From: an uncultured Fibrobacteria bacterium | GTDB taxonomy: Bacteria > Fibrobacterota > Fibrobacteria > UBA11236 | Direction of reading: 5' to 3' | Length of the DNA: 64,000 bases | Assembly (NCBI GenBank): GCA_963716395.1 | Contig: OY970309.1 | Span: forward strand, 2,336,001 to 2,400,000 | Shown here: positions 1 to 50,923 of the stretch, piece after piece | Layout of the letters: every line of letters begins with the position of its first letter | How positions within the stretch are numbered: the stretch's first letter is position 1 | Made by a program: the position numbers and the translations under genes | Notes under the pieces: generated by a model | Database searches by the model: none | Seen by the model: the letters and a program-made list of their open reading frames with translations, nothing else | What the model was told of the DNA's origin: nothing

Positions 1-2068
1 AGGTCATGGGCTTGTAGGGAATGAAGAGCAGGGGATAATCGTTCTCCGATCCCGCGAAGCGCGGTTCCTCGGCATGCGGCAGCAGCGTCGTGGCCAGGGC
101 AGGTTTTCCTAAGGCGGCCAAGGCCTGATCCGGCGTCTGATTTTTCTGTGCCGCCCAGTTTTTGATGCGCGTCTCCGCCAGTTGTGAGCGGAATTCGAAT
201 TTTCCCGACGGCGTTGTGAAGACTTCTTTCCAGCTTTCCGCCGGCAGCGGATCGTCCTGCCAATAGCCGACCTGCGTCAGTTTTTTCATGAAGTCAGCGG
301 GACTCTCGGCCTTCAAGGTGCCGCGTTGGGCGCCGGCGATACCCACCAATCGCTCTTCCATCGCCGACTGAAAGTCTTTCCACGGGAAAGACGAAGCCAC
401 CGCGCCGCCGACGGCTTGTGCGATTTGGATCAAAACATCGCCGCTGTTTTGGGTGTCGTACAGCGGATCCACCGCCGGACGGCGGATGCCGATGGCCGCA
501 CGGAATCCGAAGGGCGGAGGCGTGGCGTCTTCCCAGCGTTCCAGATAGGTGTGGTCCGGTAATATGAGATCAGAATAGAAGGCGCTTTCGTCGAGAAAGG
601 GCGCGAAACTGACGATGAAGGGAATTTTTTCGAAAGCCCGGCGATACCGATCCGGGTCGTTTTTGGCGTACAACGGATTGGAGTAATACAACAGCAAGGC
701 TTCGGTCGGGTAAGGCTTGGCCGCCAGCACGCTTTCCGGTAAAGCATCCAAGGCGGACGCGGCGAAGGGGAAGCGATCGCGCATGCGGCCGTCCAGCGCC
801 GGTTGCTGCAACCCCGCCTTGGCCGCGGCGTCGTGGATCTCCGCCGCCCAGGCCGACAGCGGCAGGGGTTTTTTCACCACCATTCCTCCGGGCCGCTCGA
901 TTGAACCCAGCATGGCGTTTAGCGCCAGCGCGCAGCGGGCGATGTTGAGGCCGTTGGAAGTGGCGGTGGAACGGGAATCGACCACCACCACCGCCGGACG
1001 CGAAGCCGATAATTCGATGGTCAGTCGGTAAATGTCCTGTTCGGGAATCCCCGTCAAGCGCGAAACCTTGTCCGCCGGATAGTCGTTCAGCAGGGCCGAG
1101 AAATCTTCGAAGCCGACGGTATGGGCGGCGACGAAATCGCGATCATACAGATTGTCTTTCAACAATTGATTGGCGAGTCCCAGTGCCAGCACATCGTAGG
1201 TGCCGGGGCGGATGCGAATCCATTCGTCGGCCACTTCGGCGGTGCGCGATTCGTTGGCCTCGACCTGCACGATTTTCGATCGCCGGGTGGGGTTCTCGCG
1301 CCGAAAACTTCCGGTGGCGCGCGCGAAGTGAATGCCGAAGCAGGTGGATTCGAAGATCCCGGATCCGAGGCTCAGGATATAAGACGTCTTGAGCGCATCG
1401 TAGCCGGGAATCTCGGCGCTGCCGGTTCCCATTTCCATGGCTTGCACCAAGGCGCCGTCGCCCGTCGAGAGGGGATCGAAGAAGTTCGGCGTTCCGTACA
1501 CGCGGCAGAACCGCTCCAGCATTTCCTTCATGAAGCCCCGCTGCCGGCCGCACAGGACGGCGAGCTTGTGAGGTTCGCCTTTCGTGCGCAAGGCGCCTAG
1601 ACGTTGCGAAACTTCGGCGGTGGCCTGATCCCAGGAAATCGGTTTCCACCGTCCCGCGCCCCGTTCCCCATCTCTTTTCATGGGGCCGCGGATGCGATCC
1701 GGATCATAGAGGGTGAACACGCCGGATTGTCCTTTGGGGCCGAGTTTGCCCCCCACCAACAGGCATTCGGGGTTTCCGTTGATCTTCACCGCACGTCCCT
1801 GCACCACCCGCACCTTGATTCCGCAGTTGACGGGGCATTGTCCGCAAGCCGTGGCGACTTGGCGTTCTTCGCCGAGATACCAGTGGTCGGATCCGGGAAC
1901 GGGCGCCTTATCCTCGGCAATAGCGAAAGGATCGGTATGCGGCAAGCAGGCCGAAAGCGTTCCCGCCGCGCCCAAGGCGCCGGATACCTGCAGAAATTTT
2001 CTGCGGGAAAATGATCCGGATTTCACCGGGTTTGACTCCGCGTTATTGGTGGCACGTGGTGCAGGCAT
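1..2068 (-). CDS. Tat-exported molybdopterin-oxidoreductase-fold subunit (QrcB/ActB/PsrA-like), truncated by the window edge
   Basis: Not in the ORF track because it runs off the edge; translated manually from ATG 2068. Twin-Arg SRRKFL followed by lipobox-like LSAC, CGQCPVNCGIKVRV, LYDPDRIRGP, KPISWDQA, ADEWIRIRPGTYD, SDLILPDHTYLE and TPSGKFEF are all DMSO-reductase family motifs. Start overlaps the end of the pentaheme gene. Confidence 0.88.
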   Translation of the reverse strand, partial: MPAPRATNNAESNPVKSGSFSRRKFLQVSGALGAAGTLSACLPHTDPFAIAEDKAPVPGSDHWYLGEERQVATACGQCPVNCGIKVRVVQGRAVKINGNPECLLVGGKLGPKGQSGVFTLYDPDRIRGPMKRDGERGAGRWKPISWDQATAEVSQRLGALRTKGEPHKLAVLCGRQRGFMKEMLERFCRVYGTPNFFDPLSTGDGALVQAMEMGTGSAEIPGYDALKTSYILSLGSGIFESTCFGIHFARATGSFRRENPTRRSKIVQVEANESRTAEVADEWIRIRPGTYDVLALGLANQLLKDNLYDRDFVAAHTVGFEDFSALLNDYPADKVSRLTGIPEQDIYRLTIELSASRPAVVVVDSRSTATSNGLNIARCALALNAMLGSIERPGGMVVKKPLPLSAWAAEIHDAAAKAGLQQPALDGRMRDRFPFAASALDALPESVLAAKPYPTEALLLYYSNPLYAKNDPDRYRRAFEKIPFIVSFAPFLDESAFYSDLILPDHTYLERWEDATPPPFGFRAAIGIRRPAVDPLYDTQNSGDVLIQIAQAVGGAVASSFPWKDFQSAMEERLVGIAGAQRGTLKAESPADFMKKLTQVGYWQDDPLPAESWKEVFTTPSGKFEFRSQLAETRIKNWAAQKNQTPDQALAALGKPALATTLLPHAEEPRFAGSENDYPLLFIPYKPMT

Positions 2069-2627
2069 ATTCCGCCCCTCTTTCCTTGTGGCACGCGATG
2101 CACTTGGACATGGTCAAATAGGCGATGTCGGGCTGGGATACCGGTTGCGACACCTTGCGCATGTCGCGATGGCAATCCCAACATTTCATCTGCCCAAAGA
2201 CGACATGCGCCCGATGCGAGAAATAAACATGGCCCGGTAACCTGTTCACCACGATCCAAGGAATCTCTTTCCCCGTCTTCAAATACTCGCGCACCTTCGC
2301 TTCTTCCGGGTTTTTCCCCTGGGGTTCGGAATGGCAATCGGCGCAATCGCGCAACAGGGGCAAGGTCGCGTGCGCCCCTTTATCCGCGAAGCGATGGCAA
2401 TCCGTGCAGTCCATGTCTTCGGCTTTGATATGGGCCGCGTGATTGAAGGCCAGCGGTTGCCGCACCGCCGGTGGGGGAGACAGGAAATCGATGGCGGAGG
2501 CGGGAATGTCTCCCGAGCGATTACACGCTTGGTAGGTCAACCCGATCGCGAGCAACGCGAACCAGGCCGGGAGAAGGAATTTCCTTTCTCCCCGCCGTCC
2601 GCTGAGTTTCCGCTTGCCTGGTTCCAT
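2043..2627 (-). CDS. Membrane-anchored pentaheme cytochrome c (QrcA/ActA-like)
   Basis: Five CXXCH (CTDCH, CADCH, CWDCH, CIACH, CTTCH), QPLAFNH and VYFSHRAH motifs, N-terminal hydrophobic segment; AGGTGA RBS before ATG 2627. Confidence 0.88.
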   Translation of the reverse strand: MEPGKRKLSGRRGERKFLLPAWFALLAIGLTYQACNRSGDIPASAIDFLSPPPAVRQPLAFNHAAHIKAEDMDCTDCHRFADKGAHATLPLLRDCADCHSEPQGKNPEEAKVREYLKTGKEIPWIVVNRLPGHVYFSHRAHVVFGQMKCWDCHRDMRKVSQPVSQPDIAYLTMSKCIACHKERGAEYACTTCHQ

Positions 2628-2656
2628 GTCGTCACCTATCGGTTTGCCGCGGGGGG

Positions 2657-3073
2657 TTACTTCGTGGTTGAATTGGCAACATCGTATTTCAGCGAAGCCA
2701 CCCAGGTTGCCAGCGTATCCAACTCTTCGTCCGACCCCTTGAATTTTTTCTTGTGCTTGTGGCCGTCCAGCTTCACCTCTTTTTTCAGCCACTTGACAAT
2801 CCAGTCCTTCTCTTTTTTCTTGCCCACGTCCGACAGATCCGGGGGTTCGATTTTTTTCCCCAGTAAGGCTTCATCTTCGTCCACGTCCGCGGTGGATTCG
2901 TCCGATTTCACCTTGGCGATTTTCAACGCGGAAATCGCATGGCATTGGGTGCATTTATTCTGGAGAAAGATTTTTTGTCCCGCCGGAACGGCGGCATCGG
3001 CCTGTGCGCGCATCGGCGTCAAGCCCGCCAGTAACATTCCCGTTCCGAGGGAGAGCAGCGTTTGTTTCCACAT
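2657..3073 (-). CDS. Periplasmic monoheme cytochrome c
   Basis: Signal peptide ending AQA, GQKIF..KCTQCH, PPDLSDVG; AAGGAAAGGA RBS before ATG 3073. Confidence 0.85.
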   Translation of the reverse strand: MWKQTLLSLGTGMLLAGLTPMRAQADAAVPAGQKIFLQNKCTQCHAISALKIAKVKSDESTADVDEDEALLGKKIEPPDLSDVGKKKEKDWIVKWLKKEVKLDGHKHKKKFKGSDEELDTLATWVASLKYDVANSTTK

Positions 3074-3276
3074 GGTGAGGTTTCCTTTCCTTCCCGAACC
3101 GGGTTGGGTGGTTCGTTTGTCATCCACGACTCAAGCGAATATCGATCCAAATTGTTCCGACTTGGAATGGCCCGGAGTTTCGGCTTTTTAATGCAACTCA
3201 ATAGGCAAAGTGGCGAAACGGCAGAACTTTCAAGACAGACTGGCACGAATTTGGTGGGGAGCGTGCTTTCTCTTCA

Positions 3277-3430: not shown

Positions 3431-3446
3431 TGGCATTGATGTTGCT
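3431..3446 (+). promoter_or_regulatory. Sigma54 (-24/-12) promoter of the porin-cytochrome operon
   Basis: TGGCATTGATGTTGCT matches TGGCAC-N5-TTGCW with exact GG/GC spacing, about 33 nt before ATG 3480. Confidence 0.7.
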
Positions 3447-3479: not shown

Positions 3480-4688
3480 ATGAAACCCCGTCCTTTACAC
3501 CAGCCTCTCATCCTTCTCGTCCTGATCGCCGGCGCCGCCCAAGCGGATTACATCAACAGCACCGTCACCCTTGGAGGGTATGCGTTGGATTCCAAGGACG
3601 CGACCAATAGCAACGACTTCTACCAAATGGAACGCGTCAACGTTTCGGCTTTGGAAAACGGCCTGGATCTACATCTCGCCTACGGCTATTCCGATTTCTA
3701 TGAAAAGCGCCCCAACACCTATCAGACTTCCAATCGCCTCGCCTTGGCCAATGTCGGATTCACCCCGGCCGGAATCGACGGGCTGCGCGTCGAAGGCGGA
3801 CGAGACTTCATGAGCTTGATCGATCGCCCGCTCTACTATGATGGGGCCGAAGCGCGCTATCAGTATCAAGGGTTTGTGCAGGCAGAATTGTTCGGCGGCT
3901 ACGGCGTTCCCACGGTTTATCAAAGCGATCTCGTGGATTTCAATTCGGACAAAGCCCTGATGGGCGGCAAGCTCACCTTCACCCCGCTTTCCCAGTTGCT
4001 CATCCATCTCGACGGCTTGGTCAACGGCCGGCAGGATGACGGAACGCTCGGCGGCGACATTCAGGGAAGCCTGGGCGACCAGGTCACGGTGTCGGCCAAC
4101 TCCGTCTACCGGCTGGATTCGAATTACTTCTCCCGGGCGGAAATTTCCGTGCTGGCCAGCGTCGTTCACCGCGTCCAGTACCAGCTTCGGTTCGGATACC
4201 AGGACGAAAAAATCGACTCAACCCGAAACTACGACTATTTCGTCAACCAGGCCCACCAGTACATGCTGACGGGGTTCGTGTATTCCTGGAACGAGAAAAT
4301 CAGCGCCGACGCGGATTACGGGGTGCTGATGTACACCGACACCACGGGCCAACTGGCGGATTTCAAACTGAATGTCTACGGATTTTTCGTGGGCGTCAGT
4401 CAGGAATTTGCCACCGTCACCGACGCCTTCGATTTGACGGCCGGCTACAGCAACACCTACTGGAGCCGTCTGCGCCTCGACGTGGCGGGAGATTACACCC
4501 GCTACGATTTGGATCCGGTCAACATCGGACTGAAAGCCCTCGACTTTTCCGTGGCCCCCACCTACTTCCTCGGCCACGGGCTCGAAGCGACCGTGGAGTA
4601 CGAATATCTGCACAACCGCATCTACGACAGCGACAACCGATTTTACGTCGGGATTAAGGAATCCTTTTTCAGAGGTCTCTCCAAATGA
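3480..4688 (+). CDS. Outer-membrane beta-barrel (porin of a porin-cytochrome conduit)
   Basis: Signal peptide ending AQA; alternating aromatic/hydrophobic beta-strand pattern rich in Y, F, G and D; ATGA overlap with the downstream multiheme cytochrome. Confidence 0.75.
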   Translation: MKPRPLHQPLILLVLIAGAAQADYINSTVTLGGYALDSKDATNSNDFYQMERVNVSALENGLDLHLAYGYSDFYEKRPNTYQTSNRLALANVGFTPAGIDGLRVEGGRDFMSLIDRPLYYDGAEARYQYQGFVQAELFGGYGVPTVYQSDLVDFNSDKALMGGKLTFTPLSQLLIHLDGLVNGRQDDGTLGGDIQGSLGDQVTVSANSVYRLDSNYFSRAEISVLASVVHRVQYQLRFGYQDEKIDSTRNYDYFVNQAHQYMLTGFVYSWNEKISADADYGVLMYTDTTGQLADFKLNVYGFFVGVSQEFATVTDAFDLTAGYSNTYWSRLRLDVAGDYTRYDLDPVNIGLKALDFSVAPTYFLGHGLEATVEYEYLHNRIYDSDNRFYVGIKESFFRGLSK

Positions 4689-5437
4689 AGCAAGTAACTC
4701 TGCCGTTACTGATTTGGGGAATCGCCCTGGGAGGCGAAACCCACCAGTTCTCCCATTATCAGCACGTCAAAACCGAAGGATTGGAATGCACCGATTGCCA
4801 TATCAAAACCATGGTTTCCACCACCTTGGCCGAGGCGCGGGTGGGATTGACCTTGCAGGCCTGCGTGAAATGCCATGACGACGATTCCGACTTTCAGACC
4901 CCCAAGCCCATTGTGCTGGCCGACCCCAGTTTTCGCCTGGTCCGGTCGGACGATCCCGATTTGAAATTCAACCACCGGGCCCATGTGCTCGCGAAAGTGC
5001 AATGCGCCGCCTGCCATGGAACGATCCTGGATTCGAGCGACACCGGCCATGCGCTGCAGCCGGCCAAAAACCTGTTGACCATGGAAAGCTGCATGCAGTG
5101 CCATGTGCAGAAGGCGCAAGTCGCCTGCCTCACCTGCCATACCAAGGTCGACGAACCCCTCAATCATTTGAGCGCGCTGTGGATCCGCAGCATGGGCCAT
5201 GGGATGCAGGCCAACCTGAACAAGCAAGACTGCTCCATGTGCCATGACAAAGGCTCCATCACCACCTGCGCCGAATGTCATATGGGCAACGACGCGCGCA
5301 AAGTGCATGGGTTGAACTACCGGTTCAACCACGGCATAGACGTGAAATTCAAAAAGCTGGACTGCGCGGTCTGTCACGCACCGCTCGATCAATTCTGCGG
5401 GGATTGCCACGAAGGCAAGGGAAGGGTGTCGAGGTGA
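4685..5437 (+). CDS. Periplasmic nonaheme cytochrome c
   Basis: Nine CXXCH (CTDCH, CVKCH, CAACH, CMQCH, CLTCH, CSMCH, CAECH, CAVCH, CGDCH), FSH/FNH c3/c7-type motifs, short signal peptide. Confidence 0.92.
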   Translation: MKQVTLPLLIWGIALGGETHQFSHYQHVKTEGLECTDCHIKTMVSTTLAEARVGLTLQACVKCHDDDSDFQTPKPIVLADPSFRLVRSDDPDLKFNHRAHVLAKVQCAACHGTILDSSDTGHALQPAKNLLTMESCMQCHVQKAQVACLTCHTKVDEPLNHLSALWIRSMGHGMQANLNKQDCSMCHDKGSITTCAECHMGNDARKVHGLNYRFNHGIDVKFKKLDCAVCHAPLDQFCGDCHEGKGRVSR

Positions 5438-5442
5438 AAGCC

Positions 5443-6198
5443 ATGCGGAAGTCGATTGCATACCCACTCACCGCCGCGCTGCTGGTCCTGGGAGGCTGCA
5501 GCAAGCTGGACAATCCGGACAAACCCGACGCCATGGCCTGCGATCTCTGCCACACCACGCCTTTGGACCAATTCGCGGTGCATCGGCTCCATCTCAGCAA
5601 CTTGGCCATGGCCAATTTTCCTTACCGGAACACCTCGCCCGACTTCAATTATCCCGTCGACACCTCCCAGGGGGATTCCACCTACAAGGTCGAGGTGGAT
5701 ACCGCTTTCAGATTCAGCCAGAGCGCCACCCTCGACCAGGCCATGCGCTATCAACAAAACCGGCTGTTGAACGAAGGGATTCAATGCGTGGACTGCCATC
5801 GCGGGTTGGATGGGAGTTTGGTGCAAAACAACGACCCCAATCACCGCAACGGCCGGGAAGATGCGGATTTCGATACCGTCGCCTTGCTGGAAAAGCATTA
5901 CGACGCCGTGGACACCGCCCATTTTCTGGCGACCGCTCCGAGCATGTCCTTTGACGGAACCACCTGCAACAACATGGTGTGCCACGGGGCGGGCCGCAAA
6001 TCATTACAAAACGTGGTGTGGAATACAGCTCCGAAACTGACCGATACCATGTCATGCCTCGGGTGCCATAACACCACGAATCATAAAATCGGCGTAAGTT
6101 GCGACAAATGTCACTATGACGTTACCCTGGACGGCGGGCAGACCATCCACAACTTTCGCAAACACTGGAACGACACCATCTATTACGGCAGGTACTAA
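5443..6198 (+). CDS. Lipoprotein multiheme cytochrome c (4 CXXCH + 1 CX4CH; Geobacter-type CxxxxCH...CXXCH motif)
   Basis: Lipobox LGGC; CDLCH, CVDCH, CNNMVCH, CLGCH, CDKCH. Confidence 0.88.
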   Translation: MRKSIAYPLTAALLVLGGCSKLDNPDKPDAMACDLCHTTPLDQFAVHRLHLSNLAMANFPYRNTSPDFNYPVDTSQGDSTYKVEVDTAFRFSQSATLDQAMRYQQNRLLNEGIQCVDCHRGLDGSLVQNNDPNHRNGREDADFDTVALLEKHYDAVDTAHFLATAPSMSFDGTTCNNMVCHGAGRKSLQNVVWNTAPKLTDTMSCLGCHNTTNHKIGVSCDKCHYDVTLDGGQTIHNFRKHWNDTIYYGRY

Positions 6199-6234
6199 AT
6201 GTCCGGAGAATCTTTTTCTAGAGGAGCGTGGAAA

Positions 6235-7605
6235 ATGAAACAGTTATTGGCTTTACCACTATTGGTTATCGGCGCAATAACCTTCATGACGGGATGTATG
6301 GTGCAAGGCCCTCCGGGCCCTCCGGGGAAGGACGGAACGGACGGGCTGAACGGAGACAGCGCCCTGGCTTCCTGCATGAAATGCCATTCCGATTCCAACT
6401 TCAACATCAAGACCGAACAGTATCAATATTCCAAGCATTTTTTAGGCACGACCGTGGCCCGGGGCCAGAGCAACCGATTCTGTGCCCGGTGCCATACCAA
6501 TGAAGGTTTCCAGGAAATCACCTGGAATGGCATGCCCTTCGTCGCCGCCGAAATGCCGAATGCCACCAAGATTCAGTGTGCCACCTGTCACACCATGACG
6601 GGCTTCGATTTCTCAAACGATACGACGACCATCAATGAAATCTTGCGAACCAATACCCCGGTGCCCTTGCTGTATCTCAATCAAGTCACCTTATCCGGCT
6701 GGACCACCACCAATACCTTCGACTTTTCCCAGGGGGCGTCCAAGATCAATAATTTGTGCGCTACCTGCCATCAAATCCGCGGGGCCACGCAATTCACCTA
6801 CACCGACACGGTGGGAGGCAAGTCGGCCACCAAAGCTTTTGCGCAAATTGCCTACTTCCCGATGGGCACGGCCATTCTACCCGGCGATACCGCTATCGCG
6901 GCCAAAGGGAATCTGAAGCAGCCAGCCGATTCGGTCGCCTATCTAGTGGGAAGAAGCTTCGCGGTGCATAATGGCAACCAGTCGAACATCTTATACGGAA
7001 TGAACGGATACGACTTCGGAACGCCCATTGTCACTGGACCGCGGCATCATGCTAAGAGCAATTGCGTCGATTGCCACATGAATGCCTGGGATTCGACCAC
7101 GCATACCGGCGGACATTCTCTCATCGTGAATCTCGACGACCCCGCTTGCAACGCCTGTCACAATCTCCGAGATACCCTTGCCCAGGATTCGACGGTAGTC
7201 TCCGGCTTGCTCAAACAATTGGGCGATGCACTGGCGGCGCGGAAAGTCGCGGTGAAATCGACGAGTTCCTCCGGAGTGGTATCGTATTCCTTCCTGAACA
7301 CCCATGATTTCTACGGCAAGCTCTATTCCAACAACCCGGCGGATTCGGCGGTGGTTTACGCCAGCCTGACCTCGGCGAACAAAACCGATTCGGCCACCGG
7401 GGTGATCGACTACATCAATAACGTCACCTATTCGAAGGATTCGAATTTGAAGAATAGAATCGGGCGTAAGTGGACCTATGGCGAATTGGGCGCCGCTTAC
7501 AACTACGGGTTCATCAGCTCGGAAAATGATTTAGGCAAGCATAACAGCGACTATACCAAGAAGCTGCTGCAAGCCTCGATCAATTGGCTCGCCGCCCATC
7601 CGTAA
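6235..7605 (+). CDS. Lipoprotein hexaheme cytochrome c with collagen-like N-terminus and OmcB-like helical C-terminus
   Basis: GAGGAG RBS; lipobox MTGC; G-X-Y run; CMKCH, CARCH, CATCH (twice), CVDCH, CNACH; C-terminal GAAYNY...GKHNSDYTKKLLQASINWL. Confidence 0.88.
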   Translation: MKQLLALPLLVIGAITFMTGCMVQGPPGPPGKDGTDGLNGDSALASCMKCHSDSNFNIKTEQYQYSKHFLGTTVARGQSNRFCARCHTNEGFQEITWNGMPFVAAEMPNATKIQCATCHTMTGFDFSNDTTTINEILRTNTPVPLLYLNQVTLSGWTTTNTFDFSQGASKINNLCATCHQIRGATQFTYTDTVGGKSATKAFAQIAYFPMGTAILPGDTAIAAKGNLKQPADSVAYLVGRSFAVHNGNQSNILYGMNGYDFGTPIVTGPRHHAKSNCVDCHMNAWDSTTHTGGHSLIVNLDDPACNACHNLRDTLAQDSTVVSGLLKQLGDALAARKVAVKSTSSSGVVSYSFLNTHDFYGKLYSNNPADSAVVYASLTSANKTDSATGVIDYINNVTYSKDSNLKNRIGRKWTYGELGAAYNYGFISSENDLGKHNSDYTKKLLQASINWLAAHP

Positions 7606-7647
7606 CGAACCCCCCCGCAGGGGACGCAAAGGTCCCCGGTTGTAATG

Positions 7648-7688
7648 AAAGGCTTCAGCCCCCCCCAGGGCTGGAGCCTTTTGATTTT
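7648..7688 (+). terminator. Intrinsic terminator after the cytochrome operon
   Basis: Stem AAGGCTTCAGCCC / GGGCTGGAGCCTT followed by a T-rich tract. Confidence 0.65.
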
Positions 7689-7872
7689 ACCCGCCCTGAA
7701 TCTGAAAATGTGAGCCGAGTCATTGGAGGCCCGGACTTTGCTGTCTTTGGGTGCATGATCAAATCGGATGATTTTCAAGACAATCATCTGTCATTAATGC
7801 AAACCTACGGACAATTAGACAAATCGAGTGGGGTCGAGAATGCGCCAATCCGCCGCGGTAAAACACTTTAGA

Positions 7873-8541
7873 ATGCAGAACGCCACCAAGCTGCGAATTT
7901 TTCTGGGGCTGTGCCTGTCGTTGTTCATGGTGCTGCTTTTCAGTTGCCGGGAAAAGAACGAGAAGCAGAGTTATTCCGAAGTTCAAGGCTTCGACTCTCC
8001 GGTTAAACAGGAAGAGATCAAGGTGCCGGCCGATCTCCCAGCCGATCCGCACGCGGGAATGCAAATGCCCGACGGGCAAAATCCCCCTGCGGGCATGGTG
8101 CCCGCCCATCCCGCCGGAACTCTGACATGGAAACTGCCCCCGGGTTGGACGGCCCAACCGGGAAGCGGCATGTTTTACGCCATGCTTACAACCGGTCCCG
8201 ACGCCAATGCCGGGCAAGTTTCCATCATCGTTTTGCCGGGTGAGGCGGGAGGATTGCCAGCCAATGTCGAGCGTTGGTTGGGGCAACTGGGTTTGCAACT
8301 CCCCGGCTCCGCCGTACAGAACTTCATCGCCCAGAGCAAAAAGATTCGCACCCAAGGGAACATGGACCTTACGCTGTTGGATTTCAGTTCCGTGGTCCCG
8401 GGTCCGGGCAATTCCATGCTGATGGGCATCACCAAACCCGGCGACGACTCCTACTTCATTAAAATGATGGGACCGAAAGCCGCCTTGGAAAGCCAGAAGA
8501 AAAATTTCTTGGACTTCTGCAGTTCCTTGGTCCTGAAATGA
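7873..8541 (+). CDS. Uncharacterised lipoprotein leading the cytochrome c maturation operon
   Basis: Lipobox LFSC; PHAGMQMP..VPAHP His/Met linker; WKLPPGW and ANVERWLGQLGL motifs; ATGA overlap with the ResB-like gene. Confidence 0.7.
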   Translation: MQNATKLRIFLGLCLSLFMVLLFSCREKNEKQSYSEVQGFDSPVKQEEIKVPADLPADPHAGMQMPDGQNPPAGMVPAHPAGTLTWKLPPGWTAQPGSGMFYAMLTTGPDANAGQVSIIVLPGEAGGLPANVERWLGQLGLQLPGSAVQNFIAQSKKIRTQGNMDLTLLDFSSVVPGPGNSMLMGITKPGDDSYFIKMMGPKAALESQKKNFLDFCSSLVLK

Positions 8542-9689
8542 ACTCCGCGACCTTGGCCACCAAGTTGCGCGCCTGGCTGCCGCGCCTGGCTTCTTTGCGC
8601 ATCACCGTGGTATGCCTGCTGCTGCTCTTCATCTTGACGGCTTGGGGCACGATTTACCAGGCCGGAAACGGTTTGTATGCGGCGCAGACCCGTTTTTTCC
8701 ATTCCTGGTTTTTCCTCATCGGCGGCATCATCCCCTTTCCCGGAGCGCAACTCGTCATCTGGGTGCTGTTCATCAATTTGCTGGCTTCGCTGATCTTCCG
8801 CGTGAAATATTCCTGGGGAAATCTCGGCAACATCATCACCCATGCCGGCATCCTTTTTCTGATCGCCGGGTCTTTCGTGACCTATAAATACGCCGTGGAA
8901 TCCTACCTCCCGCTTTCCGAAGGGGAACTTTCCAACGTTTCCCTGGATCGTCGCAATTGGGAATTGGCCGTTTGGCATGAATCCGGCGATGCGATGGCGA
9001 AGAAAGTTTCGACCCTGGAAATGAGTCCGGACCAGATGGGGCGCGAAATCGATTTTTCCAGCCTCGGCTTCAAAGCGGTGGTGGAGAACTACTATCGGAA
9101 TTGCGTCCCCGAAACCGACCCGGCCAATTCGAGCGCCGTCCGGTTAATGCCGCGCCGGCCGGCCAAAGAACCGGAAGACAATGTCGCCGGCATGGTTCTC
9201 AAGGTCGAGCCGCGCGATGGGCCGGCCCGCGAATTCGTTCTTTACGGCGACCAAACCGAACCCGTCACGGTCGGCGGTGACCTGGAGGTTTCCCTCCGGC
9301 ATCAACGCCATCCCCTGCCCATGACCCTCAAACTCCTGACCGTCAGGCGGGAAGACTATGCCGGCACGAACATCGCCCGCAGTTTTCGCAGCACGGTGGA
9401 AGTCAAAAGCCGGGGGGTGAATTTCACCACGCGCATTTATATGAACCATCCCCTGCATTACCAAGGCTTCGTCTTCTACCAGGCCTCGTATTCCCGGGAC
9501 GCGGAGGGCGAGGGAGCTTCGGTGTTCCAGGTGGTCAAAAACACGGGCCGCCCGCTGCCGTATATATCCGGCGGGCTGATTTTTTCCGGCATGCTGATCC
9601 ATTTCCTGTGCATGCTTTTCGGATTCGGCCGCCGCGGCGAACCCGGGGGGCGGCCGAAAACAGCCATGGCGCGCGGGAGGGTGGCATGA
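8538..9689 (+). CDS. Cytochrome c biogenesis protein, ResB/CcsB-like (system II)
   Basis: LASLRITVVCL N-terminal TMs, ITHAGILFL, large periplasmic domain with IYMNHPLHYQGFVFYQASY, C-terminal TM. Confidence 0.85.
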   Translation: MNSATLATKLRAWLPRLASLRITVVCLLLLFILTAWGTIYQAGNGLYAAQTRFFHSWFFLIGGIIPFPGAQLVIWVLFINLLASLIFRVKYSWGNLGNIITHAGILFLIAGSFVTYKYAVESYLPLSEGELSNVSLDRRNWELAVWHESGDAMAKKVSTLEMSPDQMGREIDFSSLGFKAVVENYYRNCVPETDPANSSAVRLMPRRPAKEPEDNVAGMVLKVEPRDGPAREFVLYGDQTEPVTVGGDLEVSLRHQRHPLPMTLKLLTVRREDYAGTNIARSFRSTVEVKSRGVNFTTRIYMNHPLHYQGFVFYQASYSRDAEGEGASVFQVVKNTGRPLPYISGGLIFSGMLIHFLCMLFGFGRRGEPGGRPKTAMARGRVA

Positions 9690-11560
9690 AGACGCAAATT
9701 TTCTGGACCGCACTGGCGGTCGGCATCGGATTGGGTTTTTCCCAAGAAGTTTCCTTGCAGGCCTTCAAGGCCATTCCGATCATGGACGCCGGCCGGGTGA
9801 AACCCCTGGATACCTACGCGCGCATCACTTTGCTGCAACTCAGTTCCCGCAGCAGTTACCGGAACCGGCCCGCCATCGATTGGCTGGCCCGGGTCATGTT
9901 CACTCCCAACGCGGCTTCCAACGACGCGGTGTTCCGGATCAACAATATCGACGTGGTCTACACCTTGGGGTTGGAGCCCACCCGGAACAATCGCTACACC
10001 TTTGCGCAATTGGCGCCGGCCATCAGCAAACTTTCGCAGCAGGCCGAAGCCGCCATGAAGATCGAGGAGAAGCAACGCACACCGGTGGAATCGGAGCTCA
10101 TCCGCGTCGCGAACAATCTGAGCCTATACGTCGGTCTCATGAACAGCTTTCTGTTTACCGAACCGAACCCCGACTTTCAGGTTTCCGATCCCGCCGTGGC
10201 GGCGCACCTCGGGCTCCCGCCTCAAGATGGGCCTTACAGCTTCATGGAAATACGCGCCCATATGGGCCAATTGGCCCCGCTGGTGCAGCCGCTCATGGGC
10301 GGAGGGCAGGGGAAAGATCCTTCCACGTGGAGCCCCGAGCAAAAGGCCGCTTTTCAACTCTTTCAGAACTTCACCAATTGGAGCGAACAATATCGGGACT
10401 TCCCCATTCCCATCATTCCTCCGGCGGGAAACCGGGCGGAAATGTGGATGAGCCCATGGGGTTTGGTGGCCCGGCCAAACCTCGATCCCGGAACCATGGC
10501 AGCAGTCACAGCCCTGCAAGCAATGGATTCGGCCTTTGTCGCGGGTCAGCCGGCGAAATTCGATCGCGCGGTGAATGCGCTCGTCGGTTTCATCGAGGCC
10601 CGCGGGGGTGTGGCGATCAAACCGTGGCGCCTGCACCTGGAAATTTTTTACAACGCTCTCGATCCTTTTTACCGCGCCAAAATCCTCTACGGCCTCGCCA
10701 TTCTGGGAAGTTTACTGGCGATGATGGTGTGGAGAAAATGGCTGTCCGTTCCCAGCCTGGCGCTGCTCGTTTGCGGCGCCTTGCTCGAAGCCGTCGGCAT
10801 CGGCCTGCGGGTGGTCATCAGCGGCCGCGCCCCGGTTTCCAATCTCTTTGAAACCTTCCTCTTCGTGTCCTTTATCGGCGCGCTTTTGGGAATCGCGCTG
10901 GAACTTTTTCATCGCAAAGGCTTCGGCACCTTGGTGGGATCCATCACCGGCTTCCTGGTGCTGCTGATTTCCAGCCGCTACAACACCGACGGCGACACCA
11001 TCGGCGTCCTGGTGGCGGTGTTGAACTCGAATTTTTGGCTGAGCACCCATGTCATCACCATCAGTCTGGGTTATGCGGGTTGCTGCATCGCCGGGGTGAT
11101 CGGGCATCTTTATCTGATGCAAACCGCCGTGAACCCCGCGGCCAAGGAAAAATTGGACGGGTTAAGCCGCATGACCTATGCCATGCTCGCTTTCGGCCTG
11201 CTCTTCGCCTTCATCGGCACCATTTTGGGCGGCATCTGGGCCGACCAAAGCTGGGGCCGATTCTGGGGGTGGGATCCGAAGGAAAACGGGGCGTTGTTGA
11301 TTGTGCTCTGGGGCACGATTTTGTTTCATGCCAAGTTGGGCAAAATGATCGGCCCGCTGGGAATGGCCGTGGGTTCGGTGTTGGGAATCGTGGTGGTGAT
11401 GATGGCCTGGTTCGGCATCAACTTGCTCGGGGTCGGGTTGCACTCCTACGGATTCACCTCGGGAGTGGCCAATTCCCTGGCCGTGTATGTCAGCCTCGAA
11501 GCGCTCTTTCTGGTGGTCGTGCTGTACTTCGTCAAGCGCGCGCAACTGCGTGCGGCTTGA
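9686..11560 (+). CDS. ccsA: Cytochrome c biogenesis protein CcsA/ResC (heme lyase, system II)
   Basis: GRVKPLDT, GRAPVSNLFE, WLSTHV, WWD domain WADQSWGRFWGWDPKEN, GLHSYG; ATGA-coupled to the ResB-like gene. Confidence 0.93.
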   Translation: MKTQIFWTALAVGIGLGFSQEVSLQAFKAIPIMDAGRVKPLDTYARITLLQLSSRSSYRNRPAIDWLARVMFTPNAASNDAVFRINNIDVVYTLGLEPTRNNRYTFAQLAPAISKLSQQAEAAMKIEEKQRTPVESELIRVANNLSLYVGLMNSFLFTEPNPDFQVSDPAVAAHLGLPPQDGPYSFMEIRAHMGQLAPLVQPLMGGGQGKDPSTWSPEQKAAFQLFQNFTNWSEQYRDFPIPIIPPAGNRAEMWMSPWGLVARPNLDPGTMAAVTALQAMDSAFVAGQPAKFDRAVNALVGFIEARGGVAIKPWRLHLEIFYNALDPFYRAKILYGLAILGSLLAMMVWRKWLSVPSLALLVCGALLEAVGIGLRVVISGRAPVSNLFETFLFVSFIGALLGIALELFHRKGFGTLVGSITGFLVLLISSRYNTDGDTIGVLVAVLNSNFWLSTHVITISLGYAGCCIAGVIGHLYLMQTAVNPAAKEKLDGLSRMTYAMLAFGLLFAFIGTILGGIWADQSWGRFWGWDPKENGALLIVLWGTILFHAKLGKMIGPLGMAVGSVLGIVVVMMAWFGINLLGVGLHSYGFTSGVANSLAVYVSLEALFLVVVLYFVKRAQLRAA

Positions 11561-17423: not shown

Positions 17424-18632
17424 TCATTTTCTCTCCGGCAAAACCAGCAGCAGGGGCGCGTAAATCCAAGCCCACCAGGCGACGGCGCCCAGGGCGAAGC
17501 CCGCGGCCACCGCCAGGTGCAGCCAATGACCGCGCGTCCAGATATCGGTGGCCACCCGCGAGGACATGGCCAGCAAAAGCAGCCAGCCGTAGCCGAAGGT
17601 TTGCTTACGATGGTTTTGCAGGATTTCCAGGCGGCCGCCGTGGGCTGCGGTCACGCGCGCGGCGATGGACAGGATCAGCCACAGAAATCCCGTGATGAAA
17701 ATCACATGCTCCCAGGCGACGGGGTAGGCGGGAAGAAACACCGGCATGGCCAGGCCCAATCCCATGGCCAGCAGGGAGTACCGCGCCCCGGCCAGGTAAG
17801 CCGGCAGGCGGCGGGACAGGCGGTGCAGGTGGTGTAAGTGCAGGGGACGCAGCAGGAACCAAAACCAAATGCCCGCCCGCAAGCCGGCGGCCACGCGGAG
17901 GGCCAGCGGCGTCGCGACCCAACCGTCGAGCGCATAACTCAGGGCAAAGAGAAATCCCCAGGGAAGAAGAGTACGGAAGGACGTATTGGGGGAGGAGCGC
18001 AGGTCTTCAGGCTGGACCAACGCGTTGCCGAACAGCTTGGGCAGAAGAAAATTTCCGATGCCCAGAATCAAGAGCAGGGGAAAGGCCTGGAACTGAAGTA
18101 GCGATCCCGTCCGGGCGAGTGCGAATCCGCCGAGGCCGCCGGCGAGGAGTCGAAGCAAAGTCCCGATCATATCGGCGGACACGGCCAGGGCGATAAACGC
18201 GAAGGCCGCAGGAGGATTTCCGCGCCGATGTTTCCAGCGGGTCGCGATGAAGAGGACGAAATTCACAAGCAAGAGGAGATGAAAAATTTGGCCCCAAGCC
18301 GTGGCGCCGATCACGGTCGCGAGGGGAGTCGCGATCAAGAGAATCGGGAACAGCGCGAATTGCCCTGGACCCAAAGGGGCGACGCCCAGCACCTTGGGAA
18401 GCATGGTGCACAGGAATCCGAAAATGAAGCAAAGCACAAATCCCTGAATTTGCAGGGCGGCATGCGCCGGGCCGGGATAGGGGAAAGTTTGCGGCCGGAA
18501 ATAAAAGGGAATCCAGATGCCCAATCCGATCGCGATAAAACCCATCCCCAACGGGAAAAGCAATCGATACGGCTCTTGCCGCAAATCGGCCCACGTGATT
18601 CCAGTGGTCGCGGTGGCGGCTTCCGGCGTCAT
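17424..18632 (-). CDS. nnrS: NnrS-family membrane protein (NO stress)
   Basis: EPYRLLFPLG, HAALQIQGF..GFLCTMLP, WEHVIFITGF, RVTAAHGG; many TM segments. Confidence 0.75.
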   Translation of the reverse strand: MTPEAATATTGITWADLRQEPYRLLFPLGMGFIAIGLGIWIPFYFRPQTFPYPGPAHAALQIQGFVLCFIFGFLCTMLPKVLGVAPLGPGQFALFPILLIATPLATVIGATAWGQIFHLLLLVNFVLFIATRWKHRRGNPPAAFAFIALAVSADMIGTLLRLLAGGLGGFALARTGSLLQFQAFPLLLILGIGNFLLPKLFGNALVQPEDLRSSPNTSFRTLLPWGFLFALSYALDGWVATPLALRVAAGLRAGIWFWFLLRPLHLHHLHRLSRRLPAYLAGARYSLLAMGLGLAMPVFLPAYPVAWEHVIFITGFLWLILSIAARVTAAHGGRLEILQNHRKQTFGYGWLLLLAMSSRVATDIWTRGHWLHLAVAAGFALGAVAWWAWIYAPLLLVLPERK

Positions 18633-18643
18633 GCTTCGGTTCG

Positions 18644-20038
18644 TCAGATCACCCGCGAGTATTGGGGCAGATCGCCGCTGCCGATCATGGGATCAAACGC
18701 CGCGGCCACCATGCGGGACAACAAAAATCCGCTTTCGGTGATGCGGACCACGTCGTCTTCGCGCGCGGCGATTCCGTCGGCGAGAAACGGCGCGAGCTTG
18801 GCGTAACTGGCGGCCAGGTATTCGCGCTTCCATTCCGCCTCCAATCCCGGCACTTCCAAGGCGTCTTCCACTTCGGTTTCGCCGCGGCAGAGCAGGTCGT
18901 TGATGATGGCGCGCACGGCCACATCCTGGGTCCGCATGCGGTAGGCCCGGGCGAAGGAGGGTTTTCCGCTTTCGACCCGGGCGCGGTAGCGGTCCAAATC
19001 TTTTTCGTTCTGAAGGTACCCTTGGTGTAACTGGGAGATTCCGGATGCTCCGAAGGCGTGCACCTGGCCGGCGCGTTCGGCCACGCAATAGCCTTGGAAG
19101 TTGCGGTGCAACCGGCCCTCGGCCTTGGCCCGCCCCAGTTCGTCGTCGGGCTTGGCGAAGTGATCCATGCCCACGGCCACGTAGCCCGCGCGCAAGAAGG
19201 CTGCGCGCGAGGCGAGGGCCATGTCGAGGCGGGCGGCCGCATCGGGCAGGGGGAATTTTTCCAGCGCGCTTTGATGGCCTTTGACCCAGGGCACATGCGC
19301 ATACGGAAAGAGTGAGACCCGATCCGGGTCGGCATCGATGATGGCGGCCACGGTGTCGGCGAAGGAGTCGCGCGTTTGATAGGGCAGGCCGTAGATCAAA
19401 TCGAGGTTGATGCCGAAGAACCCGAGATCGCGGGCGGTTTGCACCAGCTCGGGATGCGGCAGGCGCGTAGGCCGGCGATGCACGGCCTGCAAAACCTGGG
19501 GATGGACGTCTTGGATGCCGAAGGAGACGCGGTTGAATCCCATGTTGCGGAGGTCTTCCAATTTGGATTTCACGATCAGGCTGGGATCGCATTCAATCGC
19601 GACTTCGGTGGCGTCGGAGATGGGGAAGGCCGAGGTAATCGTGCGCAGCACGGCCGCCAACGAAGCGTAAGCAACCGCGTTCGGGGTTCCGCCGCCGAAA
19701 TGGATTTGCGAGACGGGACGGGATGGGTCGAGATAGGGAAGCAATAACGCGAATTCTTGCGGCAGCAAATCCATGTAGGCGCGGATGAAATCGCCTTTGC
19801 GGCCTATCTCGGTGTAGCAACCGCAAAACGTGCAGCGCTGCGGACAAAAGGGAATATGGAAGTAAAAGGAAAGGTTTTTGGGCCCGATGCGGTTCGAAGT
19901 CTTCAGCAATTCCGGGTAATCGATTCCATCGGGATCTTGCACGATGAAGTTCGCGGGGGGATAGGAAGTGTAGCGCGGCGCGAACCCGTCATATTTCGAC
20001 AACAATTCCAGCGGAGATTTTTCTATTACGGCCGTCAT
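18644..20038 (-). CDS. hemN: Oxygen-independent coproporphyrinogen III oxidase
   Basis: PRYTSYP, YFHIPFCPQRCTFCGC, HFGGGTP, GMDHFAKPDDEL, RNFQGY. Confidence 0.95.
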   Translation of the reverse strand: MTAVIEKSPLELLSKYDGFAPRYTSYPPANFIVQDPDGIDYPELLKTSNRIGPKNLSFYFHIPFCPQRCTFCGCYTEIGRKGDFIRAYMDLLPQEFALLLPYLDPSRPVSQIHFGGGTPNAVAYASLAAVLRTITSAFPISDATEVAIECDPSLIVKSKLEDLRNMGFNRVSFGIQDVHPQVLQAVHRRPTRLPHPELVQTARDLGFFGINLDLIYGLPYQTRDSFADTVAAIIDADPDRVSLFPYAHVPWVKGHQSALEKFPLPDAAARLDMALASRAAFLRAGYVAVGMDHFAKPDDELGRAKAEGRLHRNFQGYCVAERAGQVHAFGASGISQLHQGYLQNEKDLDRYRARVESGKPSFARAYRMRTQDVAVRAIINDLLCRGETEVEDALEVPGLEAEWKREYLAASYAKLAPFLADGIAAREDDVVRITESGFLLSRMVAAAFDPMIGSGDLPQYSRVI

Positions 20039-20245
20039 ATCTTCCCACTCAGCTTTCTTCTTCTCATTAAAAGGAGCAAAGCCCAAGCCAAGCTGGTATC
20101 GCGTTTCCCGCGAATTCGATCAAACTTCGCAGCCTCGCTTCCGGGCTTTTTGTCAAAGCGGCATGCAGAATGACAAAGGTGTTCGCGTGCCATGCGGCCG
20201 GATCCGAGTGAGAAACCTGATCCTTCCTTGGAAGGTGGATTCGCG

Positions 20246-27023: not shown

Positions 27024-27668
27024 TTAGGCCTTGCGGGTTTTACGCCAACGGGCCGCGCCAGCTAACCCGATCATCCCCATTCCGAACAGCGCCAGGGTGC
27101 CCGGTTCGGGAACCGCTGCGGGAGACGTATCTGAAATGTCGGTGAGGGTGAAGGTTCCTAACCATTTTGACCCATTGGAAGTGTAATCTTGAGCATACCC
27201 CTCACCAGTATAAGTTTGACCTACACTAAAAGAAGTGTACCCACTGCTGACGTTAGTGATCTCCACATAGTTGTAAAAGGTGCTTTGATCAGTGGGCGAG
27301 ACAACAAATATGTAACCTTGCTCACCGTAATACGCCGGATCCACTTCAAATCCATAACTATAATCATAATTAATCACATTTCCTGCGCCCCCTGTAAAGG
27401 TTGGGCTGGAAACGTAATCCGCTTGAAAATAGTTGTAATACCCAGGTTGATTGTAGGAACTCATATCAACGTTAGTCCCATTAACGATTTTGTGCCCTGG
27501 GGCGGCTAAATCCGCCATGATGACAATGGTCGCAGCGCCGGCACTCGGAGAGGTTATGGTGGAAGAAGAATTACTGGAGGTAATGTCGCCCTCGAAGGTA
27601 AGGTAAACCGGAGTGGCATAGGCCGAAAGCGCTAAGCCCAGCATTGTGGGTAGAATGGATTTTTTCAA
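27024..27668 (-). CDS. PEP-CTERM sorting domain protein
   Basis: AAAGGA RBS with TTG start, signal peptide, C-terminal VPEPGTLALFGMGMIGLAGAARWRKTRKA. Confidence 0.93.
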   Translation of the reverse strand: MKKSILPTMLGLALSAYATPVYLTFEGDITSSNSSSTITSPSAGAATIVIMADLAAPGHKIVNGTNVDMSSYNQPGYYNYFQADYVSSPTFTGGAGNVINYDYSYGFEVDPAYYGEQGYIFVVSPTDQSTFYNYVEITNVSSGYTSFSVGQTYTGEGYAQDYTSNGSKWLGTFTLTDISDTSPAAVPEPGTLALFGMGMIGLAGAARWRKTRKA

Positions 27669-27707
27669 AAGTGATCCTTTTTGGTTTTGGGTGACGGCTG
27701 GGCGTTA

Positions 27708-27789
27708 AGAAAACTTAATGCCAGCAAATATTGCGTAAATCTTCGAAATTATGCCGGGTAATTTCTTTACTATGTAAAGTTTTCCGAAT
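27708..27789 (-). promoter_or_regulatory. PEP-CTERM-box-like enhancer plus sigma54-like promoter
   Basis: Minus strand ATTCGGAAAACTTTACA (27773-27789), then about 50 nt later TGGCATTAAGTTTTCT (27708-27723; TC in place of GC at -12). Confidence 0.55.
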
Positions 27790-27936
27790 TTCGCCGAAAT
27801 TTGTTACAAATCTCATAATCCATTATTGGGCTTTATCGCCCGGCGGATGAAGAGCGGTTGCATGAGGCCTGCGCGGAATGACCCGTGGATTTGGCCGCGA
27901 TCAAAAACGTCCCCGGAAACTTCCTAACCAAACTCC

Positions 27937-29337
<1,401 letters not shown>

Positions 29338-29414
29338 GGATGCCAAAGATAGTCGGGGGAGAAAAAGGGTGGGCCGGTGGGATTCTTCAGGGTGGGATCG
29401 GAAAGGTCATGGGA

Positions 29415-33911: not shown

Positions 33912-33930
33912 CCGGAGCTACGATCCCCCG

Positions 33931-44262: not shown

Positions 44263-44364
44263 AGTTTGTAGGTCCATGGAACGGCAGGAAAACATACATC
44301 TCAAAACCCTCGAACCCAAGTCCCATGGACCCTACGGGGCAGGAGGTTTTCCGGGCCTTCCCGT

Positions 44365-50917: not shown

Positions 50918-50923
50918 CCAGTC

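Follow-up and report, generated by a model that had tools for sequence, protein, structure and literature searches.

A candidate porin-cytochrome electron conduit encoded by a sigma-54-type operon in a Fibrobacterota bacterium

The whole 64-kb stretch of contig OY970309.1 that we analysed, from an uncultured Fibrobacteria bacterium, is called the window here; all coordinates refer to its full length, and the genome was seen through these 64 kb alone. Four plus-strand genes are packed tightly within positions 3480-7605 and encode, in this order, a porin-like beta-barrel protein, a secreted nonaheme cytochrome, and two lipoprotein cytochromes with five and six heme motifs (Table 1). We propose that this four-gene operon, apparently under sigma-54 control, encodes an outer-membrane electron conduit of the porin-cytochrome (Pcc) type, and we put the probability of this reading at about 0.6. 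The first-pass annotation, made from the letters alone, had placed four closely spaced or overlapping genes here, with two lipoboxes and a terminator at the end, and all of these are indeed found where it put them. Its total of 20 heme motifs also stands as a count of 9, 5 and 6, with the reservation that one of the motifs is an atypical CX4CH.

The four-gene operon and its conservation

The heme-motif counts are far beyond chance. When the residues of each cytochrome were shuffled 2000 times, the largest numbers of motifs obtained were 3, 2 and 1 for the nonaheme, pentaheme and hexaheme proteins, respectively, against 9, 5 and 6 in the real sequences, and every multiheme open reading frame (ORF) of the window falls within the stretch from 2 to 7.6 kb. 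The porin and nonaheme genes share a 4-base ATGA overlap, and the two following gaps measure 5 and 36 bases. The porin ORF is open from 3423; we set its start at 3480 because a sigma-54-type promoter lies just ahead of that position, together with a GGAG ribosome-binding site. At the other end of the operon, the terminator has a folding energy of −26.9 kcal/mol (z = −5.9), and none of 200 shuffled sequences was as stable.

Table 1. Features of the four-gene operon and of the genes that adjoin it in the window
Feature	Coordinates	Strand	Remarks
Molybdopterin-family subunit (QrcB/PhsA/ArrA-like)	2..2068	-	twin-arginine translocation (TAT) signal; cut by window start
QrcA/ActA-like pentaheme cytochrome	2043..2792	-	5 CXXCH; NCBIfam QrcA E 2.1e-32, 112 bits vs 180
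Monoheme c-type cytochrome	2657..3127	-	signal peptide; 1 CXXCH; Pfam Cytochrom_C E 5.6e-7
Sigma-54-type promoter (-24 GG / -12 GC)	3431..3446	+	34-49 bases 5' of porin start codon
Porin-like beta-barrel	3480..4688	+	402 aa; Cys-free; signal peptide ending AAQA|DY
Secreted nonaheme c-type cytochrome	4685..5437	+	250 aa; signal peptide; 9 CXXCH
Pentaheme lipoprotein cytochrome	5443..6198 (most likely)	+	251 aa; lipobox LGGC; 4 CXXCH and one CX4CH
Hexaheme lipoprotein cytochrome	6235..7605 (most likely)	+	456 aa; lipobox MTGC (Cys21); 6 CXXCH
Intrinsic terminator ending the four-gene operon	7647..7690	+	hairpin 7647-7682, then U-run
Weaker sigma-54-like site ahead of maturation operon	7727..7742	+	looser GG-N10-GC pattern
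Conserved lipoprotein, no family	7873..8541	+	222 aa; His/Met-rich stretch; ORF open from 7828
ResB-like protein, system II cytochrome c maturation	8538..9689	+	Pfam ResB E 1.4e-11; same place in L002 and L003
CcsA-type heme-handling membrane protein, system II	9686..11560	+	624 aa; TIGR03144 E 1.8e-40; Cytochrom_C_asm E 7.8e-26

We then looked for relatives by scanning genomes, one per species, with the porin. Of 115 pattern matches, three encode a relative (L001, L002 and L003), and all three are contigs of Fibrobacterota/Fibrobacteres metagenome-assembled genomes; tblastn searches of plasmids with the porin and with the hexaheme protein gave no match. In all four loci, the window counted, the gene order is the same (porin, nine-heme cytochrome, five-heme lipoprotein with a CX4CH motif, six-heme lipoprotein), and the heme counts of 9, 5 and 6, the lipoboxes and the ATGA overlap of the porin and nonaheme genes are kept. 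Amino-acid identity among the four loci ranges from 46 to 74%, and the ratio of nonsynonymous to synonymous substitution rates (dN/dS) is 0.11-0.23 for all four genes, these ratios being approximate since dS is near saturation. Judging from these sequences, the four genes are evidently real and under constraint.

Sigma-54 sites were sought on both strands of the 206,212 bases made up by the window and the three related contigs. The strict pattern TGG[CT]A[CT]-N5-TTGC[AT] occurs four times, each time just 5' of a porin gene and on its strand (window 3431-3446, L001 718, L002 7978, L003 7851). The site ends 34 bases from the porin start in the window, 33 in L001 and 14 in L002, and in L003 it ends 30 bases 5' of an ATG at 7896. 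This restriction to the porin upstream regions in four of four loci argues for one sigma-54-dependent transcription unit. Moreover, a hairpin followed by a U-run also lies 3' of the hexaheme gene in L001, L002 and L003 (z −3.8 to −4.7). With promoter, terminator and ATGA overlap each present in four of four loci, the four genes are, as far as such signals tell, one transcription unit. On the L003 contig a gene for a sigma-54 activator adjoins the cluster; its product combines AAA+ with HTH_8 and has no receiver. The equivalent position here falls outside the window, before base 1. Among the loci compared, no inverted repeat 5' of the promoter (a possible activator site) was common to them, and an Rfam scan of the whole window found no family. 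We also considered a signal of horizontal transfer and dropped it: GC content at third codon positions (GC3) is 0.69-0.75 in the cluster and 0.75-0.79 in six distant genes, which is not distinctive, and that of the Qrc-like genes next to the conduit is 0.64-0.72.

The barrel and the three cytochromes

The porin was modelled with AlphaFold2 from 21 aligned sequences. In the best model it forms 22 beta-strands, with a mean predicted local distance difference test (pLDDT) of 80.7 and a predicted template modelling score (pTM) of 0.70, and a Foldseek search of the PDB with this model returned outer-membrane barrels exclusively, at probability 1.00 (FimD/PapC ushers, Campylobacter MOMP and OprD/Occ channels). 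The first reading of the locus had been made to hang on the first product being a beta-barrel, and the model agrees with it. In sequence databases, no match was obtained for the porin at E <= 0.1 in Pfam or NCBIfam, and the profile of its family retrieved no chain at E <= 0.9 among PDB sequences. The family is tiny: it comprises 22 proteins at E <= 0.001 (5.8 billion clusters searched, 7569 candidates scored), and HMMER, run with the profile on 1.84 billion proteins, gave 18 representatives at E <= 0.001, 12 of them at <= 1e-10. A remote group (P0033-P0038) is related to it, with an hhalign probability of 99.1% over 378 columns. Look-alikes in the ESM Atlas, which are leads only, belong to Zixibacteria and Calditrichota clusters (score 0.98-0.99).

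The nonaheme cytochrome has one heme for every 27.8 amino acids, and a low ratio of this kind has been named as a mark of heme wires (PMC5566968; papers are cited by PMC identifier, and what we take from them refers for most to excerpts). From its signal peptide without a lipobox, the protein is probably periplasmic. Its family counts 22 proteins, of which 20 carry nine CXXCH motifs, one is a fragment with eight and one is a distant relative with 14; in 20 aligned homologues all nine motifs, eight further His residues and Met133 are invariant. Residues 18-142, which hold five hemes, match ActA of alternative complex III (6f0k_A, E 6e-12; 8k9e_A, E 1.2e-10), and the N-terminal half is 31% identical (E 1e-13) to the QrcA-like pentaheme cytochrome encoded next to the conduit. 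The whole protein nevertheless stays below the QrcA family cut-off (32 bits vs 180), so that its likeness to ActA and QrcA is best read, from these alignments, as common domain ancestry and not as QrcA membership. Beyond the homologous five-heme module it adds four C-terminal hemes, in a region of 96 amino acids for which Pfam gave sub-threshold c3/c7 matches alone, and its gene is coupled to that of the barrel. By eye, it has a cleavable-looking signal peptide at the place where ActA-type proteins carry a membrane anchor. The most distant relative, P0060 (28% identity, E 3.5e-8), has 333 amino acids, 14 CXXCH motifs and a lipobox-like N-terminus. In heme number it is reminiscent of the periplasmic cytochromes with 14 hemes that are given for the Pcc clusters of Ignavibacterium and Kuenenia (PMC4245776, in part).

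In the pentaheme lipoprotein the lipobox Cys19 is followed by Ser-Lys. Its four CXXCH motifs and single CX4CH are kept in four of four loci, as are seven His residues outside the motifs. It passes the Pfam model PF09698 (GSu_C4xC__C2xCH) with 22.9 bits against a cut-off of 21.7 and falls below that of the NCBIfam twin TIGR01904 (22.2 vs 27). ESM Atlas look-alikes, again leads only, are Ignavibacteriota clusters with PF09698 (score 0.92).

The hexaheme lipoprotein belongs to a much larger family, with at least 255 proteins at E <= 0.001 among 8000 candidates scored. Among the 120 homologues listed, 117 carry six CXXCH motifs, and a tree of these 120, built by a quick method and rooted at the midpoint, gathers the 17 closest ones, including the proteins of the window, L001 and L003, in one branch supported by a Shimodaira-Hasegawa-like approximate likelihood ratio test (SH-aLRT) value of 100. 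The other 103 include all six sequences with a named Bacteroidota source. An alignment of 45 members shows the lipobox Cys, all six motifs and His68, His245, His272, His294 and His436 to be invariant and His357 nearly so, which leaves six distal His residues at hand. All 45 also carry a collagen-like G-X-Y stretch of 3-15 triplets, which separates the lipid-anchor Cys from the first heme; in the window protein there are six triplets (6298-6351, residues 22-39). A collagen-like adhesin model was matched by five of the 45, and a literature search on G-X-Y tethers on cytochromes found no relevant description among the papers listed. Residues 37-122 score 32.8 bits against 27 with an NrfB-like model, and 29.8 bits, just under the cut-off of 30, with the MtrC/MtrF domain II/IV model PF22113. 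Across the family, weak matches occur to DmsE/MtrA-like models (45 of 45), to NrfB (34 of 45) and to the OmcA/MtrC model TIGR03507 (11 of 45, the window protein not being listed among them); OmcA/MtrC proteins are decahemes, as against the six hemes here. The protein thus resembles, at a sub-threshold level, an NrfB/MtrA/MtrC-like heme module placed on a collagen-like tether. About 130 amino acids at its C-terminus are without a heme motif, and Pfam gave sub-threshold matches or none for the last 126. Kinship among the three cytochromes was tried and dropped: hhalign gave a probability of 27.9% for the nonaheme and hexaheme pair, and the 90% for the pentaheme and hexaheme pair covers the signal peptide and first heme region alone.

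We also asked whether the hexaheme protein could be an enzyme of the NrfA or octaheme kind, acting on a soluble substrate such as nitrite, sulfite or hydroxylamine with the other cytochromes as its donors, which we judge highly improbable. Like such enzymes it is rich in protein (76 amino acids per heme), it has weak cytochrome c552/NrfA matches (Pfam E 2.9e-4, below cut-off; PDB profile E 0.0045-0.03), and many of its homologues bear the precomputed label PF02335. However, all six of its hemes are CXXCH and none is CXXCK, and since five invariant and one near-invariant His could act as distal ligands, none of the hemes need be left with an open site. The NrfA matches are short and marginal, the signals of electron-transfer modules are stronger family-wide, and a lipid anchor and tether encoded 3' of a barrel gene differ from the NrfA arrangement.

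Adjoining modules, proposed mechanism and direction of electron flow

Next to the conduit genes lies a cluster that resembles Qrc and alternative complex III (ACIII), at 2-3127 on the minus strand of the window, 1732-7606 in L002 and 1670-7607 in L003. It adjoins the conduit in the three loci with enough flank; the two diverge in the window and in L003 and run in the same direction in L002. The true start of the monoheme cytochrome is probably an internal Met at about 3073, and its counterparts in L002 and L003 also have one CXXCH; that of the QrcA-like pentaheme is probably an internal Met near 2627, its counterparts in L002 and L003 having 186 and 191 amino acids. Against NCBIfam, the molybdopterin-family subunit scores 313 bits with PhsA and 264 with QrcB, both under the cut-offs. 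In L002 and L003 its gene is followed by those of a QrcC-like iron-sulfur subunit and of an NrfD-like membrane subunit that is unusually long (about 512 amino acids, roughly 13 hydrophobic segments), an order that we take to be that of qrcABCD. A menaquinone-synthesis gene is also present in the window (56347-57192).

Pairwise alignments of the molybdopterin subunit give STGDG where PsrA has SVSLCT and ArrA SSVCAE, with Gly or Asp in place of a Cys that we assume to be the ligand of the Mo. Because the Cys of PsrA and ArrA is replaced at this position, as expected of a non-catalytic Qrc/ACIII-type subunit, we infer that the adjacent complex is a quinone module of that type and not a catalytic reductase. 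This bears directly on an account without any wire, in which the barrel would be an ordinary solute channel, say for an oxyanion or polysulfide as has been proposed for ExtI, and the three cytochromes, all of them periplasmic and the lipoproteins facing inward, would be electron-transfer partners of the adjacent molybdopterin enzyme. Such an arrangement would fit the nearest solved relatives of the subunit, which are arsenate and polysulfide/thiosulfate reductases, as well as the substrate-specific OprD/Occ channels among the Foldseek matches and the porin-like ExtI, which is tied to selenite and tellurite reduction (PMC5877670, in part). The lipoproteins would also be at home there, as they lack the K-(D/E)2 motif for export and a tether of variable length would equally suit an inward-facing shuttle. 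Yet the ligand position is changed, the ATGA overlap of the barrel and nonaheme genes in four of four loci and the equal size of their families (22 and 22 proteins) fit an obligate pair, and 20 hemes in three secreted proteins are, in our judgement, far more than an ordinary periplasmic reductase should need. Moreover, the conduit operon has its own promoter and terminator, whereas the molybdopterin cluster is separate from it and divergent in the window and L003. We consider this account unlikely.

On the other side of the conduit, a second operon encodes a His/Met-rich lipoprotein, a ResB-like protein and a CcsA-type protein, and adjoins the conduit in three of four loci. Its three genes are translationally coupled, the end of the lipoprotein gene overlapping the resB start by 4 bases. 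The lipoprotein is conserved in the window, L002 and L003; it found no match in Pfam, NCBIfam or a PDB profile search, and may assist in attaching hemes or in handling metal. The looser GG-N10-GC pattern, which has 11 matches in the 206,212 bases, occurs at the equivalent place ahead of this operon at 7727 in the window, 12379 in L002 and 12260 in L003. Because sigma-54-type sites thus stand ahead of both operons (the strict one in four of four loci, the looser in three of three), the sequences suggest that the conduit and maturation operons are co-regulated by RpoN and an activator.

Taken together, these genes would allow the following scheme for a Pcc-type conduit. The barrel would be the sheath, and the nonaheme cytochrome, with its ActA/QrcA-like five-heme module and four further hemes, would sit inside it as the heme wire; going by precedent, a barrel of 22 strands and a wire of nine hemes, with 27.8 amino acids per heme, should suffice for this. 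The five- and six-heme lipoproteins, anchored in the outer membrane, would receive electrons from the wire, and the hexaheme on its collagen-like tether would be the outermost, mobile contact. Menaquinol would be the electron source, through the adjacent Qrc/ACIII-like complex and the monoheme cytochrome c, and the final acceptor outside would be insoluble or large, for example an Fe(III) or Mn(IV) oxide, an electrode, humics or another cell acting as partner. The lipoprotein-ResB-CcsA operon would attach the hemes, possibly at the CX4CH site too.

Several points weigh against this scheme. The case is built from sequence and a single-chain model of the barrel; the other four barrel models reach a pLDDT of just 59.0-73.5, so that the barrel stands on one model, and the Foldseek TM-scores are low (0.25-0.52). 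The placing of both lipoproteins at the outer surface is likewise tentative. In its favour, the residue at +2 is Ser or Met and not Asp, the lipoprotein sorting rule for Asp at +2 being one from E. coli. On the other side, the K-(D/E)2 signal, which directs lipoprotein export in Bacteroidetes (PMC5080379, in part), occurs in none of the 45 aligned hexaheme proteins, 21 of which have K-(D/E)-Gly when counted by eye. The motif [ST]-P-[ST], which we take to be the proposed hematite-binding motif, was found in none of the eight lipoprotein cytochromes. In L001 the maturation operon is missing downstream, and an HD-domain gene stands there instead. The nearest solved relatives of the molybdopterin subunit are the catalytic enzymes ArrA and PsrA, and homology of the barrel or wire to OmbB/OmaB, ExtB/E, ExtI or OetI would be conjecture. 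Finally, the adjacent Qrc-like complex leaves the direction of electron flow unfixed.

Indeed, the same conduit might be run inward, with electrons taken from a cathode, from Fe(II) or, by direct interspecies transfer, from a syntrophic partner and passed by the monoheme cytochrome c and the Qrc-like complex to menaquinone. Qrc is a menaquinone reductase in sulfate reducers, and relative to cut-off the adjacent complex scores best against it. Inward conduits have been proposed for syntrophic sulfate reducers (PMC10553843) and Fe(II) oxidisers (PMC5566968), and Fibrobacteres rose with magnetite in digesters, where a role in syntrophy by direct interspecies electron transfer, as electron-donating sulfide oxidisers, was speculated upon (PMC10448109; all three in part). 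However, the window shows the gene set of an organotroph, with a pyruvate:ferredoxin oxidoreductase, a glycoside hydrolase and a carbohydrate esterase, and for an organism of this kind electron sinks matter more than sources; nor was a terminal reductase for inward electrons seen within the window. Although sequence settles neither direction, we give inward flow only a small chance.

Relation to known conduits and significance

In the parts of PMC4245776 at hand, Pcc porins have 18-22 predicted strands, the periplasmic cytochromes 5-14 hemes and the outer cytochromes, which are usual in the class and may contain CX3-4CH motifs, 1-15 hemes, and identity within the class goes down to 8%. The locus described here has a predicted 22-strand barrel and an adjoining multiheme cytochrome whose nine hemes lie within the periplasmic range. 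As candidates for the outer cytochrome it offers two lipobox proteins, with +2 not Asp and K-(D/E)2 absent. Porins of such systems have been sought in the field with four models, those of MtrB, OmbB, ExtB/E and ExtI (PMC7399161).

The closest arrangement is that of the Geobacter sulfurreducens genes ombB-omaB-omcB, with the same order of porin, periplasmic and outer-membrane cytochrome (PMC4589669, in part). OmbB has 20 predicted strands, OmaB eight hemes and OmcB 12 (PMC4282303, as excerpted). Here the predicted barrel has 22 strands, the nine hemes of the wire are carried by 250 amino acids, and two small lipoproteins with five and six hemes replace the single OmcB; a sigma-54 promoter is found where Geobacter has the OrfR/OrfS regulator gene, and the Qrc-like complex and ResB-CcsA operon are adjacent in a Fibrobacterota host. 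The first-pass annotation had rightly recognised a porin-cytochrome architecture, but it had called the terminal cytochrome OmcB-like, which finds no support: the hexaheme protein falls into a large lipoprotein family of its own, in which an NrfB/MtrA/MtrC-like module is joined to a collagen-like tether.

It had also drawn its analogy with Geobacter ExtABCD, giving ExtD six hemes. In the excerpt of PMC6148476, ExtA has 12 hemes, ExtB 18 transmembrane domains, ExtC five hemes and ExtD 12, so that the figure for ExtD was mistaken. The analogy itself survives in the kinds of parts, since both systems comprise a porin, a periplasmic cytochrome and two lipoprotein cytochromes, one of them a pentaheme. 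It fails in order and heme counts: the Ext genes run cytochrome-porin-lipoprotein-lipoprotein with 12, 5 and 12 hemes, whereas here the porin comes first, with 9, 5 and 6, and the order fits ombB-omaB-omcB.

By contrast, the view that the system is not of the MtrAB type was sound. MtrB has 26 strands, and the ten hemes of MtrA extend over 80 Å (review PMC12806980, in part); taken as marks of the MtrAB, MtoAB and PioAB class, these numbers compare with 22 strands and nine hemes here. The nonaheme protein fails the DmsE/MtrA model TIGR03508 (21.9 bits, cut-off 192.2), and PDB profile searches with the porin and the nonaheme cytochrome returned no MtrB or MtrA chain; on these grounds we rejected an MtrAB-type system. 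What would be shared with MtrCAB is the principle, assumed for our locus, of a heme wire sheathed by a barrel and met on the outside by a lipoprotein cytochrome (PMC12806980, in part), and at a sub-threshold level the likeness of the first hexaheme hemes to the NrfB/MtrA/MtrC pentaheme module.

The PCC3 and PCC4 systems of Fe(II) oxidisers were named as new types for want of Mtr or Omb homology and, as here, have an inner-membrane partner encoded alongside (PMC5566968, excerpt). That partner is a five-helix membrane protein there and a Qrc-like complex here, and PCC3 has very large cytochromes (median heme numbers of 21 and 34), while PCC4 is without an outer cytochrome (same excerpt). ACIII-like complexes have been proposed to feed multiheme cytochromes for iron reduction in Melioribacter and MBNT15 (PMC9386147, in part); in the part available, a review of quinol oxidases in extracellular electron transfer uses none of the terms Qrc, NrfD and alternative complex III (PMC6295460).

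The locus had further been presented as possibly a new family outside Desulfobacterota. The host range is borne out in that three of three related loci are from Fibrobacterota, but conduits beyond Desulfobacterota are not new as such: Pcc clusters were published in 2014 for six phyla (PMC4245776), and have been reported, among others, in Ignavibacteria and Acidobacteria (PMC4245776, PMC7399161). Our literature searches found no porin-cytochrome conduit reported for Fibrobacterota or Fibrobacteres. A study of magnetite-amended digesters merely speculates, in the part at hand, on exoelectrogenic Fibrobacteres (PMC10448109), and a paper on Fibrobacteres (PMC5317091) names no such system. What is known, then, is the porin-cytochrome architecture; the novelty, each point as predicted here, lies in the phylum of the host, the family of the barrel, a wire derived from ActA, a hexaheme on a tether and control by sigma-54. 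An ActA/QrcA-related wire, a collagen-like tether on the outermost cytochrome, and a sigma-54 control common to the conduit and heme-attachment operons are absent from the Mtr, Pcc and Ext descriptions that we compared.

On this basis, one could go further and imagine a separate outer-membrane export machine, so far seen solely in metagenome-assembled genomes of Fibrobacterota and put together independently of those of Mtr and Geobacter, which would combine a new barrel, an ActA/QrcA-derived wire and a surface hexaheme on a collagen-like stalk of 3-15 triplets, possibly trimeric. We put this forward tentatively, as an idea with a real chance of being right but against which we would still bet. 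If true, it would provide a genetic basis for the enrichment of Fibrobacteres on magnetite.

Members of the Fibrobacterota are known for degrading fibre and chitin and are not known to respire metals or electrodes. If the Pcc-type conduit works as proposed, it would tie polysaccharide breakdown directly to the reduction of iron, humics or an electrode in this phylum, and would offer a compact 20-heme system for testing. The hexaheme family, with at least 255 members and Bacteroidota wherever a source is named, could mark hidden extracellular electron transfer there. On the tentative wider idea above, and provided that the large Bacteroidota branch of the family has this function too, many polysaccharide-degrading Fibrobacterota and Bacteroidota would respire minerals or electrodes.

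Elsewhere in the window, other genes were noted. On the minus strand at 17424-20090, hemN adjoins an NnrS-family gene; the HemN protein, an oxygen-independent coproporphyrinogen oxidase (18644-20086), scores 403 bits against a cut-off of 325, and a loose sigma-54-like site lies directly 5' of hemN at 20090. The minus-strand gene at 20587-22215 encodes a protein of 542 amino acids that has a monoheme cytochrome c domain at its N-terminus and about 400 amino acids without a family match. An exosortase/PEP-CTERM sorting locus occupies positions 27024-35507, where genes for the exosortase (EpsH) and a PEP-CTERM protein occur with those for a histidine kinase and sigma-54 response regulator, a TPR protein and a DUF3485 protein. 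Beyond 44 kb (about 44000-62000), the GC content increases from about 0.58 to values of 0.64-0.68; this region encodes several long ORFs without a family match and a 1513-amino-acid Lhr-type helicase (44365-48906).

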